Part shown: in pieces, positions 4,422 to 32,075 of the stretch
Layout: each line of letters opens with the position of its first letter
Numbering within the stretch: the first letter of the stretch is position 1
Assembly: GCA_964404345.1 (NCBI GenBank)
Contig: CAYOJS010000001.1
Span: forward strand, 1,839-44,236
Source of the DNA: an uncultured Methanosarcinales archaeon
Lineage (GTDB): Archaea > Nanobdellota > Nanobdellia > Woesearchaeales > SM23-78
Length of the DNA stretch: 42,398 nt
Reading direction: 5' to 3'
Notes under the pieces: generated by a model
Databases searched by the model: none
The model's input: the letters and a program-made list of their open reading frames with translations, nothing else
Told to the model about the DNA's origin: nothing
Program-made: the position numbers and the translations under genes

Positions 4422-6119
4422 ATGGAAATCAAGGATTGTCTGGCAACTTTTCTAGCAAAAGAACTCAAATTAGACAGGCAGAAAGTCCTTTCAATCCTCG
4501 AAACCCCTCCAGACCCCAAAATGGGAGACCTAGCGTTTCCGTGCTTCGAACTAGCCAAAATAAAAAAGAAAGCCCCTCCAGTGATTGCAATCGAGCTCGC
4601 TCAAACATTAAAGTTCCCTTCTGAGATAGAAAGAGTCGCCGCCACAGGTCCTTATCTGAATTTTTTCATCAATCGATCGTTTCTGGTAGAGCAAGTATTG
4701 GAAGAAGTTAAGAAAAAGAAAGAGGAGTACGGTCAATCGGCTCATTTCAAAGAAAAGGCTGTGGTGGAGTTTGCCGGTCCTAATACAAACAAACCCTTAC
4801 ATTTAGGGCACTTAAGAAATATATTTCTAGGCCAGGCTGTGTGCAGCATTCTAAGTGTTCAAGGCTTCAAAGTAACGCCTGTAAACATCGTAAATGATCG
4901 TGGGGCGCATATTTGTAAAAGTATGCTCGCCTATCAGAAATGGGGAAACAACGCTAAGCCTGATAAGAAAGGGGATCATTATGTGGGGGATTGGTATGTG
5001 AAGTACGCCAATGAAGAAAAGACCCACCCTGAAATGGAAGAAGAGATTCGTGAAATGTTAAGGAAGTGGGAAGAAAGCGACCCTGAAGTGAAGGCGCTCT
5101 GGAAGAAAATGAATGGTTGGGTCTTGCAGGGATTTGCAGAGACCTTCAAACGCATCGGTGTGAAATTCGATAAGGAATACTATGAAAGTGATTTTTACGA
5201 CAAAGGAAAAGACTTGGTCGAGCAAGGAGTAAAAAAAGGAGTTTTCATCAAAAAGCCGGATGGAGAAATCCTAGCAGAGCTCGAGCCTTACAAGCTCCCG
5301 AATAAGATTGTTCTCCGCTCAGATGGAACAACGATTTACATCACCCAAGACATGGCGTTAGCTAGAATTCGCTTCCAAGATTATAAGATGGATCGCATGA
5401 TTTACGTGGTGGCCAATGAACAAAACCTTCATTTTCAGCAGTTGTTTAAGATGCTAGAACTCTTAGAGTTTCCCTTTGCAAAGAACTGCTTCCATCTCAG
5501 TTATGGTATGGTAACGCTTCCGGAAGGGAAGATGAAATCTCGAGAAGGAACAGTAATTGATGCAGATGACATCTTGGATGAAATGGAGCGTTTGGCAAAG
5601 GAAGAGATTCAGGAGCGCCATGAACTGGATGAGAAAAAAGCAAAAGAGCGGGCTGTTCAGATTGGTCATGGGGCCTTGCGTTTTTTCATCTTAAAGTACG
5701 ATCATGTCAAGGACATCATTTTCAACCCGAAAGAAAGCCTCTCATTTGAGGGGGAAACAGGCCCGTATGTACAATATGCGCATGCAAGGATTTGCAGCAT
5801 TTTGCGAAAGCATGGAAGTGCAGTAGCATCAAAAATAGAATGGTCATTGCTAAAAGCACCAGAAGAGGCCGAGCTAGTGAAAGCATTAGGGAAATTCAAG
5901 GAAGTAACGCTTGCGGCGGCCGAGCAGTACAAACCCCACCTAGTGGCTCGCTACTTACTCGATCTAGCGCAGTTGTTCAATGAGTATTACCATAAGCATC
6001 AAGTGATAACCGCAGATGAAGCTCTTACCAAGGCACGCATTCACTTAATTGATTCAGTCAGACAAGTCTTAAAGAATGGCCTCAATCTTCTTTTAATCGA
6101 GGCTCCCGAGGAGATGTAA
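4422..6119 (+). CDS. argS: arginine--tRNA ligase
   Basis: Class I HIGH motif 'NKPLHLGHLRN', KMSK-like 'GKMKSREG', and a C-terminal anticodon-binding region typical of ArgRS. Confidence 0.93.
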   Translation: MEIKDCLATFLAKELKLDRQKVLSILETPPDPKMGDLAFPCFELAKIKKKAPPVIAIELAQTLKFPSEIERVAATGPYLNFFINRSFLVEQVLEEVKKKKEEYGQSAHFKEKAVVEFAGPNTNKPLHLGHLRNIFLGQAVCSILSVQGFKVTPVNIVNDRGAHICKSMLAYQKWGNNAKPDKKGDHYVGDWYVKYANEEKTHPEMEEEIREMLRKWEESDPEVKALWKKMNGWVLQGFAETFKRIGVKFDKEYYESDFYDKGKDLVEQGVKKGVFIKKPDGEILAELEPYKLPNKIVLRSDGTTIYITQDMALARIRFQDYKMDRMIYVVANEQNLHFQQLFKMLELLEFPFAKNCFHLSYGMVTLPEGKMKSREGTVIDADDILDEMERLAKEEIQERHELDEKKAKERAVQIGHGALRFFILKYDHVKDIIFNPKESLSFEGETGPYVQYAHARICSILRKHGSAVASKIEWSLLKAPEEAELVKALGKFKEVTLAAAEQYKPHLVARYLLDLAQLFNEYYHKHQVITADEALTKARIHLIDSVRQVLKNGLNLLLIEAPEEM

Positions 6120-6211
6120 AGCTTTTTGAATCCCGTTTCTCTTCTTACAAATGCATAGCTCTCACGCCCCTATGATGATCGTGAGTGGGGGTCGTTAAGC
6201 TGTGCTACAAT

Positions 6212-6240
6212 AGGGGCAGGCGTCAGCCTGCTCCTTTTTT
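6212..6240 (+). terminator. stem-loop plus T-run downstream of argS
   Basis: AGGGGCAGGC (6212-6221) / GCCTGCTCCT (6226-6235) form a 10-bp stem with one G-U and loop GTCA, running into TTTTTT (6235-6240). Confidence 0.5.
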
Positions 6241-6300
6241 CAATAACCTTAAAAAGCCTGTTTTTCTTCTATCCTGTATTGGGCCCGTAGCATAGCCTGG

Positions 6301-6344
6301 GTATGTCAAATTCGTAAGAATTTGATCAGATCTGCATAGGGCAG
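6301..6344 (+). other. non-canonical tRNA intron in the D-loop (after G18G19), 44 nt
   Basis: Central 4-bp helix GCCT (6295-98) / GGGC (6339-42). 3-nt bulges GGG (6299-6301) and AGA (6343-45). Inner helix TATG/CATA. Same position and same central helix as the tRNA-Leu D-loop intron. Confidence 0.7.
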
Positions 6345-6363
6345 ATAGTGTATCCGGCTTCGG

Positions 6364-6378
6364 TTAAAATCAGGAGAA
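6364..6378 (+). other. canonical 37/38 tRNA intron, 15 nt
   Basis: Central helix CTTC (6358-61) / GGAG (6373-76). Bulges GGT (6362-64) and AAA (6377-79). The inner helix is almost absent, so this is a relaxed BHB. Confidence 0.7.
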
Positions 6379-6420
6379 ACCGGATGAGGGGGGTTCAAAT
6401 CCCTCCGGGCTCGCCTTTTT

Positions 6421-6583
6421 TTCAGTGCAGTATCGAACGAAGTGAGATACTCAGAATTCGGCGGAGTTCTGGTACCAGAAATCCCTAGGATTTCTGTGTA
6501 CTGCGGTTCAGGGTTCTAGGGAAGTGCTCAGAAATCATGGATTTCTGGCACGCCAAGAGCTTTGTTCTTGAGCGAATTCCCTA
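6421..6583 (+). repeat. ORF-less hairpin array between tRNA-Arg and the orphan copy of its 3' end
   Basis: Five consecutive hairpins: AGTATC/GATACT (6429-6451), CAGAATTC-GGCG-GAGTTCTG (6452-6471), a 14-bp stem at 6471-6502 with loop CTA, a 13-bp stem at 6524-6551 with loop ATG, and CAAGA/TCTTG (6554-6570). The CAGAA...TTCTG core recurs. Confidence 0.55.
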
Positions 6584-6606
6584 GGTTCATATCCCTCCGG
6601 ACTCGC
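6584..6606 (+). repeat. orphan direct repeat of the tRNA-Arg 3' end
   Basis: GGTTCATATCCCTCCGGACTCGC versus GGTTCAAATCCCTCCGGGCTCGC at 6392-6414 (21/23 identical). Both copies are followed by a T-run. No matching 5' half or T-stem partner was found. Confidence 0.7.
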
Positions 6607-6688
6607 TTTTTTATTCCTTTCCAGTAAAACACCTATAGAAAATTATTCTCCAACACCACCTTTCCTTAAACAAAATCTTTAAAAAGAG

Positions 6689-7246
6689 TTGCATGTCTCA
6701 AACAAAGGGGGGTGTAACAATTTGTTTTCGTTTTCACAACAGCACAAGATTTCCGACGAGCTAATTGAGCTGCGTAGGAACATGCGTGCCGGTTTTCAAC
6801 TCGTCCGCGAGGAATTAGATAACCACTTGGACACGATCAATCAGAGTACGGAAGAAATCCAGAGCGCGTTCGAATTCTTGATGGAGTTGGATAAGAAAGT
6901 GGAAAAGCTGGGTGAGCGATTGGATCAGTTGGAGCCTTTGTTGAATCCCATTGTAAAGTCCGAACAGGTTGTATTGCCCCACCGTGAGCAAGAGGTATTT
7001 GTCCTATTATATGCAACACATGAACGTCTGCCTGTAAAAGAATTAGCAAGGAAGTTGGGTTTGACGGTAGAGATGGTAGATAATTATGTGTGCAGTATGA
7101 TCTCAAAGAAAATCCCGATTCTTCGAGAATTAGAGGGGGAAACCTGTTGGGTTTCATTGGACGGGCGATTCAAAGAATTGCAGGCAAAGCAAAGTGTGAT
7201 CCGAATCAATGAAGACGTGACCCAAAGCTTGTTAACTGAACTATAA
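6689..7246 (+). CDS. coiled-coil protein with C-terminal HTH
   Basis: The C-terminal part 'REQEVFVLLYATHERLPVKELARKLGLTVEMVDNYVCSMISK' looks like a LuxR/sigma-r4-type HTH. Start is uncertain: TTG 6689, TTG 6722 or ATG 6782. Confidence 0.55.
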   Translation: MHVSNKGGCNNLFSFSQQHKISDELIELRRNMRAGFQLVREELDNHLDTINQSTEEIQSAFEFLMELDKKVEKLGERLDQLEPLLNPIVKSEQVVLPHREQEVFVLLYATHERLPVKELARKLGLTVEMVDNYVCSMISKKIPILRELEGETCWVSLDGRFKELQAKQSVIRINEDVTQSLLTEL

Positions 7247-30726: not shown

Positions 30727-30849
30727 GCATCCCCCGAGCCACTCTAAGTTTATATGTTTTTGGCTCGATTCCTCATAGCCTTGCCGAAACACAAAGATTT
30801 TTAAGCCTAGTAAAACCCGTTTTTAACATGCGGGGGTAGCAAAGCCTGG

Positions 30850-30867
30850 CGTCGAATAGACGGGCAA
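30850..30867 (+). other. tRNA-Leu intron 1 (D-loop), 18 nt
   Basis: Central helix GCCT (30844-47) / GGGC (30862-65). Bulges GGC (30848-50) and AAT (30866-68). Inner helix GTC/GAC with loop GAATA. Confidence 0.75.
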
Positions 30868-30887
30868 TCAAATGCGCAGGACTTAAG

Positions 30888-30926
30888 ACACTTAAGTGCT
30901 GAGGCCTTCGGCCTGTGACGTAAGTC
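30888..30926 (+). other. tRNA-Leu intron 2 (canonical 37/38), 39 nt
   Basis: Central helix CTTA (30882-85) / TAAG (30921-24). Bulges AGA (30886-88) and TCA (30925-27). Internal hairpin AGGCC/GGCCT. Confidence 0.75.
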
Positions 30927-30950
30927 ATCCTGTCCCTTAGTGGGTTCGAG

Positions 30951-30981
30951 ATGCTCAAAACAAGCGTTTTGAGCACGAAAA
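30951..30981 (+). other. tRNA-Leu intron 3 (T-stem, between stem positions 3 and 4), 31 nt
   Basis: Central helix TTCG (30945-48) / CGAA (30976-79). Bulges AGA (30949-51) and AAG (30980-82). 10-bp inner helix TGCTCAAAAC/GTTTTGAGCA with loop AAGC. Confidence 0.75.
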
Positions 30982-31101
30982 GGTTCAAATCCCTTCCCCC
31001 GCATCTTTTTTAAAGGGATCACTAGGGGCACAGTTCCTGCGAAAACTAGATGAATCGCTACAGATTTCTCCTGTTAATTTTTTATTCCAAAGAGGCTTTG
31101 T

Positions 31102-32016
31102 ATGAATAAAAAAATTAACAAGGAAATCTTAGAGCTCGACGATATTTATAAGACCTACACAGGGTCAGTGCCAAATAAAGCAAAAGAAGCATTTAGAGAG
31201 TGGCTGCCTCTAGTACAGGGATCCAATCTAGCCCATGAATTTGCTTATCTAGTGGCTAAAATCATGGGTGACGGGCATCTTGATAATCATTTCACAGTCA
31301 AGCTCGTATCAAGCAAAAGTGAAAGCTTAGACTTCATCAAGGAACTACTCATCAAAAAATGCTCGATCCAAAGACAACAAATCAAGCTTTATAGGCGAGA
31401 TCATAGCCCGACTACCCATTTACTACAGATTAATAATTCTGCGTTTGGAAGAACCCTTCACGCTTTAGGAGCGCCCAAAGGGAATAAAACGCTCACTCCT
31501 TTCAAAATTCCTAAGTGGATTATAGAATCTAAAGAATCCAGCCGAATATTCCTTCAAGGGTTGTTAGAAGATGAACTCACAACGGTAAAAATCGAGAGAA
31601 AATCATATGTAAATAAGTTGAGATTTAACATGAGAAAAATCCCTTCTTTAAGAGCATCACTAATGGAGTTTCTTAGTCAAGTCAAAGAACGAATCGAAAG
31701 TTTCAATGTAACCTGTAGTGGATTGCGCGAGTTAAAGCTTACTAATCATGAAAGGGTAGAGTATTATTTTTGGATCCTCAGAAACAAAGAAAATGTCATC
31801 AGATTCGCTGAGAATATAGGGTTCCGCTTCAATCAAGAAAAGACCCAAAAGCTCCTAGAGGCCTACAAAATCCTAATGGCAACCAAAAAACCAAAGATCG
31901 ACAAAAAAGCGATTCTTAGACTCAGAGTCAAAGGATATAGCATTCGACAGATTGCAAATGAAGTGGGCACATCTAGGTCAGCAGTGCATAGACTGATAGT
32001 AAAGGAAAGATCTTAA
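31102..32016 (+). CDS. LAGLIDADG homing endonuclease (double-motif, monomeric type) with C-terminal HTH
   Basis: Motif 1 'FAYLVAKIMGDGHL', motif 2 'RIFLQGLLEDELT', and 'GAPKGNKTLTPFKIPKWI' typical of the family. The C-terminal 'GYSIRQIANEVGTSRSAVHRLI' is a resolvase/sigma-like HTH. Confidence 0.85.
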   Translation: MNKKINKEILELDDIYKTYTGSVPNKAKEAFREWLPLVQGSNLAHEFAYLVAKIMGDGHLDNHFTVKLVSSKSESLDFIKELLIKKCSIQRQQIKLYRRDHSPTTHLLQINNSAFGRTLHALGAPKGNKTLTPFKIPKWIIESKESSRIFLQGLLEDELTTVKIERKSYVNKLRFNMRKIPSLRASLMEFLSQVKERIESFNVTCSGLRELKLTNHERVEYYFWILRNKENVIRFAENIGFRFNQEKTQKLLEAYKILMATKKPKIDKKAILRLRVKGYSIRQIANEVGTSRSAVHRLIVKERS

Positions 32017-32019
32017 CGA

Positions 32020-32039
32020 TTCGAATCCCTTCCCCCGCA
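32020..32039 (+). repeat. orphan direct repeat of the tRNA-Leu 3' end (T-loop to discriminator)
   Basis: 19/20 identical to 30984-31003. Starts 3 nt after the endonuclease stop codon. No upstream tRNA body is present. Confidence 0.75.
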
Positions 32040-32075
32040 CTTTTCTATTTTTTCTAAAAACTTGGAACGAAAAAA

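Follow-up and report, generated by a model that had tools for sequence, protein, structure and literature searches.

A Duplicated tRNA-Arg 3′ End Next to Its Parent Gene in an Archaeal Genome, a Possible Scar of Inserted Mobile DNA

RESULTS

The tRNA-Arg(UCG) gene and its neighbors

The window, by which we mean the entire 42,398-nt stretch of archaeal DNA that was analyzed, carries a tRNA-Arg(UCG) gene that is followed by a run of thymidines, an interval rich in hairpins, a second copy of the tRNA 3′ end, and another run of thymidines. ARAGORN reports no tRNA when it is given the unspliced window. The Rfam model RF00005 produces a single match, at 6281-6413 (34.7 bits), in which long insertions enlarge the D-loop and the anticodon loop. 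When these two introns are removed, ARAGORN calls the product tRNA-Arg(tcg). The features of the locus are as follows.

6241-6256, plus strand: BRE/TATA-like predicted promoter of tRNA-Arg, CAATAACCTTAAAAAG, ∼25 nt upstream of the tRNA start
6281-6413, plus strand: tRNA-Arg(UCG) gene, with exons at 6281-6300, 6345-6363, and 6379-6413
6301-6344, plus strand: D-loop intron of tRNA-Arg, 44 nt, with a BHB motif (H4/h2/h'5)
6364-6378, plus strand: canonical 37/38 anticodon-loop intron of tRNA-Arg, 15 nt, located by a BHB scan
6392-6422, plus strand: first copy of the repeat, from G52 of the T-stem to the 3′ end of tRNA-Arg, then CC and a T7 terminator run
6584-6612, plus strand: orphan copy, from G52 to the discriminator with the changes A58T and G69A, plus a T6 run
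6613-6688, plus strand: post-orphan spacer and predicted promoter (6671-6686) of the downstream coiled-coil/HTH gene, based on conservation in lineage A

Among species representatives, the closest relatives of the arginyl-tRNA synthetase (ArgRS) encoded here belong to DPANN archaea (Woesearchaeota/Nanoarchaeia MAGs) and are at most 57% identical. A large protein collection holds two closer ArgRS lineages, which share 84% (lineage A) and 81% (lineage B) identity. Lineage W hereafter denotes the window sequence, lineage A is represented by nine contigs, and lineage B by four (L090-L093). A genome scan with ArgRS for further relatives returned 80 loci, all ≤57% identical, and a metagenome scan with the orphan junction recovered only a contig that was already in the set. 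The W sequence recurs in six contigs from independent groundwater assemblies. Over 6100-6730, these contigs agree at every position but 6449 (in hairpin 1, described below), where two of them have a SNP. The locus is therefore not an assembly artifact.

The ArgRS gene (4422-6119) is located directly upstream of its cognate tRNA-Arg(UCG) gene in W, A, and B, with a small RNA between the two. No tRNA is found beside ArgRS in the nine most similar DPANN/archaeal loci (≤57% ArgRS identity). The small RNA, at 6152-6240, is H/ACA-like, having a hairpin with a GA/K-turn-like loop and ACA at its end, and it yields a weak match to Rfam Pab91 (24 bits, below threshold). Its sequence is 95-97% identical across the three lineages. 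The terminator hairpin that follows is 42-52% identical, and its pairing is preserved via changes on both arms. The promoter-like sequence at 6241-6256 is conserved at 88-92% in lineages A and B, and a near-copy of this motif (D4) precedes the downstream ORF. This ORF, the coiled-coil/HTH gene, begins with TTG at 6722, a start that was confirmed by exact protein look-up. In the post-orphan spacer, 6631-6648 (CTATAGAAAATTATTCT) is fully conserved between W and lineage A. This element resembles a TATA-type sequence on either strand, and its use on the minus strand would transcribe antisense to the orphan.

The introns of tRNA-Arg differ among the lineages. Lineage A is missing exactly the 44-nt D-loop intron, which constitutes a clean absence. 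Between W and B, 42 of the 44 nucleotides of this intron are identical, compared with an identity of 31% at ArgRS 4-fold sites. Each of the three lineages has an anticodon intron of its own length (15, 39, and 37 nt) and sequence. One lineage-A contig (L083, 2880-2930) has a 53-nt deletion in tRNA-Arg that takes out the 3′ strand of the D-stem, the anticodon, and most of the anticodon intron; in addition, a C of the acceptor stem is replaced by A. Mis-splicing was rejected as the source of this deletion, since its boundaries carry no BHB motif. The deletion represents either a dead allele or an assembly error.

An orphan 3′ end downstream from tRNA-Arg

A preliminary description of this DNA had matched the end of tRNA-Arg (6392-6414) to 6584-6606 with 21 of 23 positions identical. 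This repeat is real and slightly longer, with 26 of 29 positions identical over 6392-6420 and 6584-6612. The T-runs that had been reported after both copies are likewise present, at 6416-6422 and 6607-6612. A search for the 23-mer with up to three mismatches finds just these two sites in 42 kb, where 0.00 are expected. The copies are separated by ∼170 nt in the window. The duplication starts at G52 G53 of the T-stem and extends into the terminator.

The orphan of lineage A shares A58T and is altered by a further 2 nt in the T-stem, where CATCTCC replaces CCCTCC. The G69A change was added in W relative to lineage A. The duplication predates the split between W and lineage A.

One W-lineage contig from another sample (L095) shows no difference from the window and breaks off exactly at the repeat's first base (corresponding to 6393 of the window), after GAGGGGGG. 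This end would fit a second haplotype in the sampled population that diverges at the T-stem 51-53 junction, or it could be due to chance.

The interval between the copies is a hairpin array

No ORF of at least 20 aa lies wholly inside the interval, except for chance frames of 21-34 aa, and no remnant of an integrase, an endonuclease, or any other ORF was found between the copies. The interval also has no promoter-like element. RNAfold predicts five consecutive hairpins (6429-6451, 6452-6471, 6472-6501, 6524-6551, and 6552-6573) and an energy of −77.2 kcal/mol (z = −5.98). The last two hairpins are enclosed by a palindrome (6515-6523/6577-6585) and an outer helix. A hairpin of the form CAGAAWTY..RAKTTCTG occurs three times in the interval and nowhere else in the window, where 0.02 occurrences are expected, and no copy of it exists in the 98 loci searched. 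The earlier account of an ORF-less stretch of five hairpins built around CAGAA...TTCTG cores thus holds, apart from the chance frames. The interval can be divided into five parts.

6429-6451, plus strand: hairpin 1 (AGTATC...GATACT), common to lineage A, with a conserved stem and a variable loop
6452-6502, plus strand: module (i), consisting of hairpins 6452-6471 and 6472-6501 with TACT...TACT flanks; present in W only, with a gap in lineage A
6503-6523, plus strand: conserved core GCGGTTCAGGGTTCTAGGGAA, containing the 5′ palindrome arm; 19 of 21 nt identical to lineage A
6524-6573, plus strand: module (ii), consisting of hairpins 6524-6551 and 6552-6573; present in W only, with a 50-nt gap in lineage A
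6574-6583, plus strand: pre-orphan segment GAATTCCCTA, containing the 3′ palindrome arm; 100% identical to lineage A

The palindrome, CTAGGGAA-GAA-TTCCCTAG, is perfect and is common to W and A, and module (ii) is inserted in its loop. The two modules are inverted paralogs of each other (I1, 92%; I2, 86%) and also show direct similarity (D3, D5). A near-copy, GAAATCCCTAGG, located at 6478-6489 inside module (i), matches the pre-orphan sequence GAATTCCCTAGG (D6). From these similarities, we read the modules as local inverted and direct duplications that would have been added in the window lineage; we infer this direction of change because no outgroup contains the spacer. The preliminary description had also raised a structured RNA that tRNA-processing enzymes might release. 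The array is found in the window lineage only, and therefore the array itself cannot be an old conserved RNA.

The minimum free energy fold of the window pairs the core (6503-6523) with the 3′ strand of the orphan, a helix that three mismatches interrupt in lineage A. Around module (ii), at 6523-6572, lies a BHB-like motif (H4, h6). It is not statistically convincing, and the flanks are palindromic in any case. Excision of 6523-6572 gives a product that is one base different from lineage A. No BHB motif is found at the alignment boundaries of module (i).

The modules are marginally similar to the T-stem intron of the tRNA-Leu gene described below (p about 0.03), and local alignment of the spacer to the tRNA-Leu cassette is no better than that of shuffled sequences. 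The 17-base hairpin core has five matches in viral contigs, a number that we estimate to be near chance. The proposal that the interval is a MITE-like relative of the tRNA-Leu cassette is not supported, given the lack of significant similarity to that cassette and of hairpin copies in the window or the 98 loci. Two pieces of the interval had also been described as echoes of the tRNA T-arm. The echo in GAATTCCCTAGG holds up, with 100% conservation in lineage A, while that in AAATCCCT is an 8-mer that is not significant by itself.

A whole-gene tandem duplicate was entertained as the source of the spacer and rejected, because the similarity of the upstream spacer to tRNA-Arg is not significant (21-70 of 500 shuffles are as good).

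The orphan block is conserved in a sister lineage

Lineage A has the same gene order as W: small RNA, tRNA-Arg, T-run, spacer, orphan, T-run, and HTH gene. Its spacer between the copies is ∼57 nt, and the two ∼50-nt blocks of W (about 6452-6502 and 6524-6573) are absent from it. Lineage B has no orphan in the 99 nt downstream from tRNA-Arg that its contigs cover, and this flank cannot be aligned to the interval or to the post-orphan region. For this reason, lineage B was dropped as a candidate empty site for tRNA-Arg, and no empty site is demonstrable among the relatives. Three lineage-B contigs (L090-L092) break off 69-99 nt past tRNA-Arg, within or shortly beyond ...CCCTAAAGGGTAGGGTATCCAGCTAGGCGATTGCGTGG, which suggests that a repeat or variable region lies right after tRNA-Arg in lineage B as well. 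The fourth (L093) ends upstream of the tRNA.

The 4-fold sites of W and A are saturated, with identities of 41% in the ArgRS gene, 24% in the HTH gene, and 31% in the iPGM gene. Hairpin 1 is nevertheless 80% identical between the two lineages, the core is 90% identical, GAATTCCCTA is 100% identical, and the orphan is 91% identical. The 82 nt at 6607-6688, which include the T-run of the orphan, are 89% identical. For comparison, ordinary promoter spacers of W and A are 74-82% identical, and two diverged upstream spacers are 52-68% identical.

A neutral scar should have decayed beyond recognition at the W-A divergence. Conservation of ∼90% despite saturated synonymous sites argues that the orphan block is constrained, exapted, or homogenized, and is not freely decaying. 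The block may be constrained as an upstream region of the HTH gene, as a second terminator, or as an RNA. Gene conversion may homogenize the orphan against the invariant tRNA, but this process cannot account for the flanks. It is also conceivable that the locus was exchanged between the lineages.

A tRNA-Leu gene in the window is duplicated from the same position

A second tRNA gene of the window, 24 kb from the tRNA-Arg locus, is part of the following unit.

30831-31005: tRNA-Leu(UAA) gene with three introns
30831-32040: the cassette as a whole

The T-stem 51/52 intron of this gene (30951-30981) has a perfect HBh' motif. The gene is followed by a T-run, a 304-aa LAGLIDADG ORF, an orphan 3′ end, and another T-run. 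The ORF matches the endonuclease part of the intein-containing proteins RtcB (1.9e-22) and RFC (1.8e-9), and it has a C-terminal HTH. We considered whether the protein encoded downstream from tRNA-Arg, which also has an HTH, is related to this endonuclease, and found no relation.

A related locus provides the empty site for this cassette. In L098 (1840-2350; LysRS 89% identical), the T-arm of tRNA-Leu is uninterrupted, there is no ORF and no orphan, and the downstream flank equals the window sequence that comes after the tRNA-Leu orphan. The tRNA-Leu orphan is therefore the native 3′ end. Relative to this empty site, a unit comprising an intron, a new 3′ end, a terminator, and an endonuclease gene is an insertion between G51 and G52 of tRNA-Leu. 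In L097 (4290-4620), tRNA-Leu has instead a T-loop intron at about 59/60. Long-range BHB splicing that would join the 5′ part of tRNA-Leu to its orphan was considered and discarded, because no combination gives a tRNA.

The endonuclease belongs to a family of about 40 members, and in 4 of 4 contexts examined (the window, L105, L106, and L109) the homolog resides at tRNA-Leu(UAA), never at tRNA-Arg. L105 (900-2110), from another archaeon, has a 47%-identical homolog of the ORF in the same tRNA-Leu, ORF, and orphan layout. In L106 (3435-3575) and L109 (3430-3600), the endonuclease and tRNA-Leu(UAA) genes are arranged tail to tail. In each of W, L105, and L106, the tRNA gene adjacent to the endonuclease contains a BHB intron at T-stem 51/52, the insertion coordinate. 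The T-arm introns of tRNA-Leu look like target-site disruptions in a conflict between the tRNA gene and the endonuclease.

Two tRNA genes of the window thus share the layout that had been ascribed to them, in which the gene, a T-run, an insert, and an orphan 3′ end occur in this order. The tRNA-Arg and tRNA-Leu duplications both begin at T-stem 51/52 ± 2 nt (51/52-53). The loci differ in that the tRNA-Arg interval contains neither an ORF nor sequence similar to the tRNA-Leu cassette, and tRNA-Arg has no T-stem intron.

DISCUSSION

Origin of the orphan

We put at about even the chances that the tRNA-Arg orphan is the native 3′ end, displaced by a cassette that carried a substitute 3′ end and later lost its cargo. 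According to this proposal, a mobile cassette would have entered the tRNA-Arg DNA at T-stem position 51/52, which marks the 5′ edge of the T-loop. It would have supplied a replacement 3′ end and terminator, so that tRNA-Arg stayed functional, while the resident 3′ end and terminator were pushed downstream to become the orphan. The cassette would have been present before W and lineage A split, and later deletion of the cargo would have left a spacer of ∼57 nt, as in lineage A. By analogy with the intact tRNA-Leu(UAA) cassette, the cargo would most likely have been a homing-endonuclease gene, an integrase-type element being the classical alternative. The window lineage would then have added two ∼50-nt palindromic hairpin blocks, giving rise to the 170-nt hairpin array. 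Among the readings put forward in the preliminary description, scars of integration is the best supported, given that the duplication is real and begins at the same T-stem coordinate as that of tRNA-Leu. Several findings weigh against the cassette proposal. The interval holds no ORF remnant and nothing similar to the tRNA-Leu cassette, the four endonuclease homologs with examined contexts reside at tRNA-Leu(UAA), lineage B provides no alignable empty site for tRNA-Arg, no viral or plasmid contig carries the tRNA-Arg 3′ end, and the orphan block is better conserved than a neutral scar should be.

Free-standing homing-endonuclease genes in the organelles of fungi and algae carry a duplicate of the 3′ end of the gene they invade, as in Allomyces atp6. 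In such units, the replacement 3′ end keeps the gene functional, and a remnant of the native 3′ end can outlive the endonuclease gene. The organelle units reside in protein-coding genes, whereas the locus described here is an archaeal tRNA gene with a putative endonuclease.

In archaea, tRNA fragments beside reconstituted tRNA genes are a known signature of element integration, and the segment that SSV1 uses at the 3′ end of tRNA-Arg is 44 bp long (PMC3293823). The arrangement of a complete tRNA, an insert, and a partial copy resembles that left by SSV1 and pNOB8-type elements, and that of the Caldiarchaeum tRNA-Thr fragment (Sugahara et al. 2012, PMC3293823). As with those integrations, tRNA fragments persist and introns change at the same locus among close relatives (PMC3293823). 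However, the tRNA-Arg locus has no recombinase gene or remnant, and its spacer is 57-170 nt. Its repeat is 23-29 nt and starts at T-stem position 52, and no attP-bearing element was found.

Alternative explanations

Another possibility is that the orphan is an att-type scar of an SSV- or pNOB8-like integrase element in tRNA-Arg that was almost entirely deleted, with no homing endonuclease ever involved. A direct repeat of the 3′ part of a tRNA flanking inserted DNA is the classical signature of such events, and inclusion of the terminator in the repeat is expected for DNA-level exchange. We nevertheless consider this origin unlikely. The interval contains no integrase gene or fragment, no virus or plasmid contig in IMG/VR matches the tRNA-Arg 3′ end, and the sole intact precedent in this genome is an endonuclease cassette. 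The two copies of the repeat also differ, though later decay could explain the difference.

The conservation of the orphan block raises the question of whether it is a functional element under selection, whatever its origin. We regard this as rather unlikely, although it is the main rival of the cassette proposal. In one version, the block would be upstream regulatory DNA, a second terminator, or an insulator for the coiled-coil/HTH gene. In the other, it would be an alternative or decoy 3′ exon, such that a BHB-like motif in read-through transcripts could join tRNA position 51 to the orphan. The identities of the core (90%), GAATTCCCTA (100%), the orphan (91%), and the post-orphan region (89%), compared with 24-41% at 4-fold sites, favor a function of either kind. 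The arms of the palindrome are perfectly conserved, and the 50-nt module in its loop leaves the pairing unbroken. Moreover, a BHB-like motif (H3, h4, h'4) is located exactly at 6391/6392 ... 6583/6584 and is identical in lineage A. A motif of this quality is reached by 3 of 46,971 position pairs and in 1.4% of composition-matched shuffles. In the window, the hypothetical splice product is still called tRNA-Arg(tcg), with one C-A mismatch in the acceptor stem.

Several observations weigh against such a function. The interval has no promoter-like element and is preceded by the T7 run. In lineage A, the T-stem of the orphan is broken and the spliced product folds abnormally, and the helix between core and orphan, which is intact in the window, has three mismatches. 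Both lineages have U58 in the orphan instead of the near-universal A58. The complementarity of the junction motif may simply reflect descent of GAATTCCCTAGG from the 3′ strand of the T-arm, and tRNA-Leu has no comparable long-range motif. With just two lineages to compare, there is no power to detect covariation. The more specific idea that the orphan is a maintained second 3′ exon or decoy, which draws on its ∼90% identity at saturated silent sites, seems to us quite improbable. If it were true, read-through transcripts could be spliced onto the orphan, the DNA copy could be a sacrificial target or a repair template against endonucleases that cut the T-arm, and the hairpin modules would be expansion segments tolerated in RNA loops.

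An alternative reading of the modules is that a small mobile element, MITE-like or a mobile BHB intron, placed two copies of itself beside the orphan in opposite orientations. The modules are indeed two ∼50-nt blocks of two hairpins each that are mutually inverted (I1, I2). TACT...TACT surrounds module (i), and the BHB-like motif (H4, h6) bounds module (ii). Introns at the tRNA-Arg locus are gained or lost between lineages, and the marginal similarity to the tRNA-Leu T-stem intron (p about 0.03) points in the same direction. Fujishima et al. (2010) reportedly found archaeal BHB introns at non-canonical positions and proposed their transposition. As with such introns, the modules are short, hairpin-rich inserts that vary between relatives, and one of them is bounded by a BHB-like motif. 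However, the modules reside in non-tRNA sequence downstream from a terminator, and statistics do not firmly support their BHB boundaries. The 42-kb window and the 98 loci contain no further copy, and local duplication is indicated by the match between part of module (i) and the neighboring pre-orphan segment (D6). There is also no outgroup with the spacer that could separate gain in W from loss in A. We therefore hold the mobile-element explanation of the modules to be very unlikely.

Finally, 6464-6605 or the whole interval might be a functional tRNA gene that has several non-canonical introns and a 3′ end like that of tRNA-Arg, a case that the preliminary description had itself raised for 6464-6605. 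GAGTTC at 6464-6469 can pair with GGACTC of the orphan, and the organism has tRNAs with two and three introns, including introns in the D-loop and T-stem. However, RF00005 finds nothing in 6415-6612 at E values up to 10. A splice search was also run on 155 candidate introns with BHB-like motifs, and it covered every set of up to four that do not overlap (32,857 sets). Among the 24,300 distinct spliced products of 6415-6615 that resulted, ARAGORN found 0 tRNAs, and the same search recovered its positive controls, which were tRNA-Arg and the three-intron tRNA-Leu genes in five genomes. The sole candidate for a 5′ acceptor strand (GAGTTC at 6464) is in module (i), which is absent in lineage A, where the 3′ strand of the T-stem is disrupted as well (CATCTCC replacing CCCTCC). 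Inspection revealed no anticodon arm with U33. On the strength of the Rfam result and the empty splice search, we reject a functional multi-intron tRNA at 6464-6605, and any hidden tRNA in the interval is extremely improbable.

Implications

Viewed in isolation, the tRNA-Arg locus amounts to a footprint, with a piece of a tRNA gene lying beside the gene from which it derives; mobile DNA aimed at tRNA genes is known to leave such traces. Both tRNA genes on the contig are duplicated from the same T-stem coordinate, and one of them still holds an endonuclease gene. T-arm and D-loop introns come and go among close relatives. Together, these loci form a short natural series that bears on a long-standing idea, according to which introns and gene fragments of archaeal tRNAs originate in conflict with mobile elements that target tRNA genes. 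The orphan block is more conserved than expected, and one may ask whether remnants of this kind are recruited for a new role.
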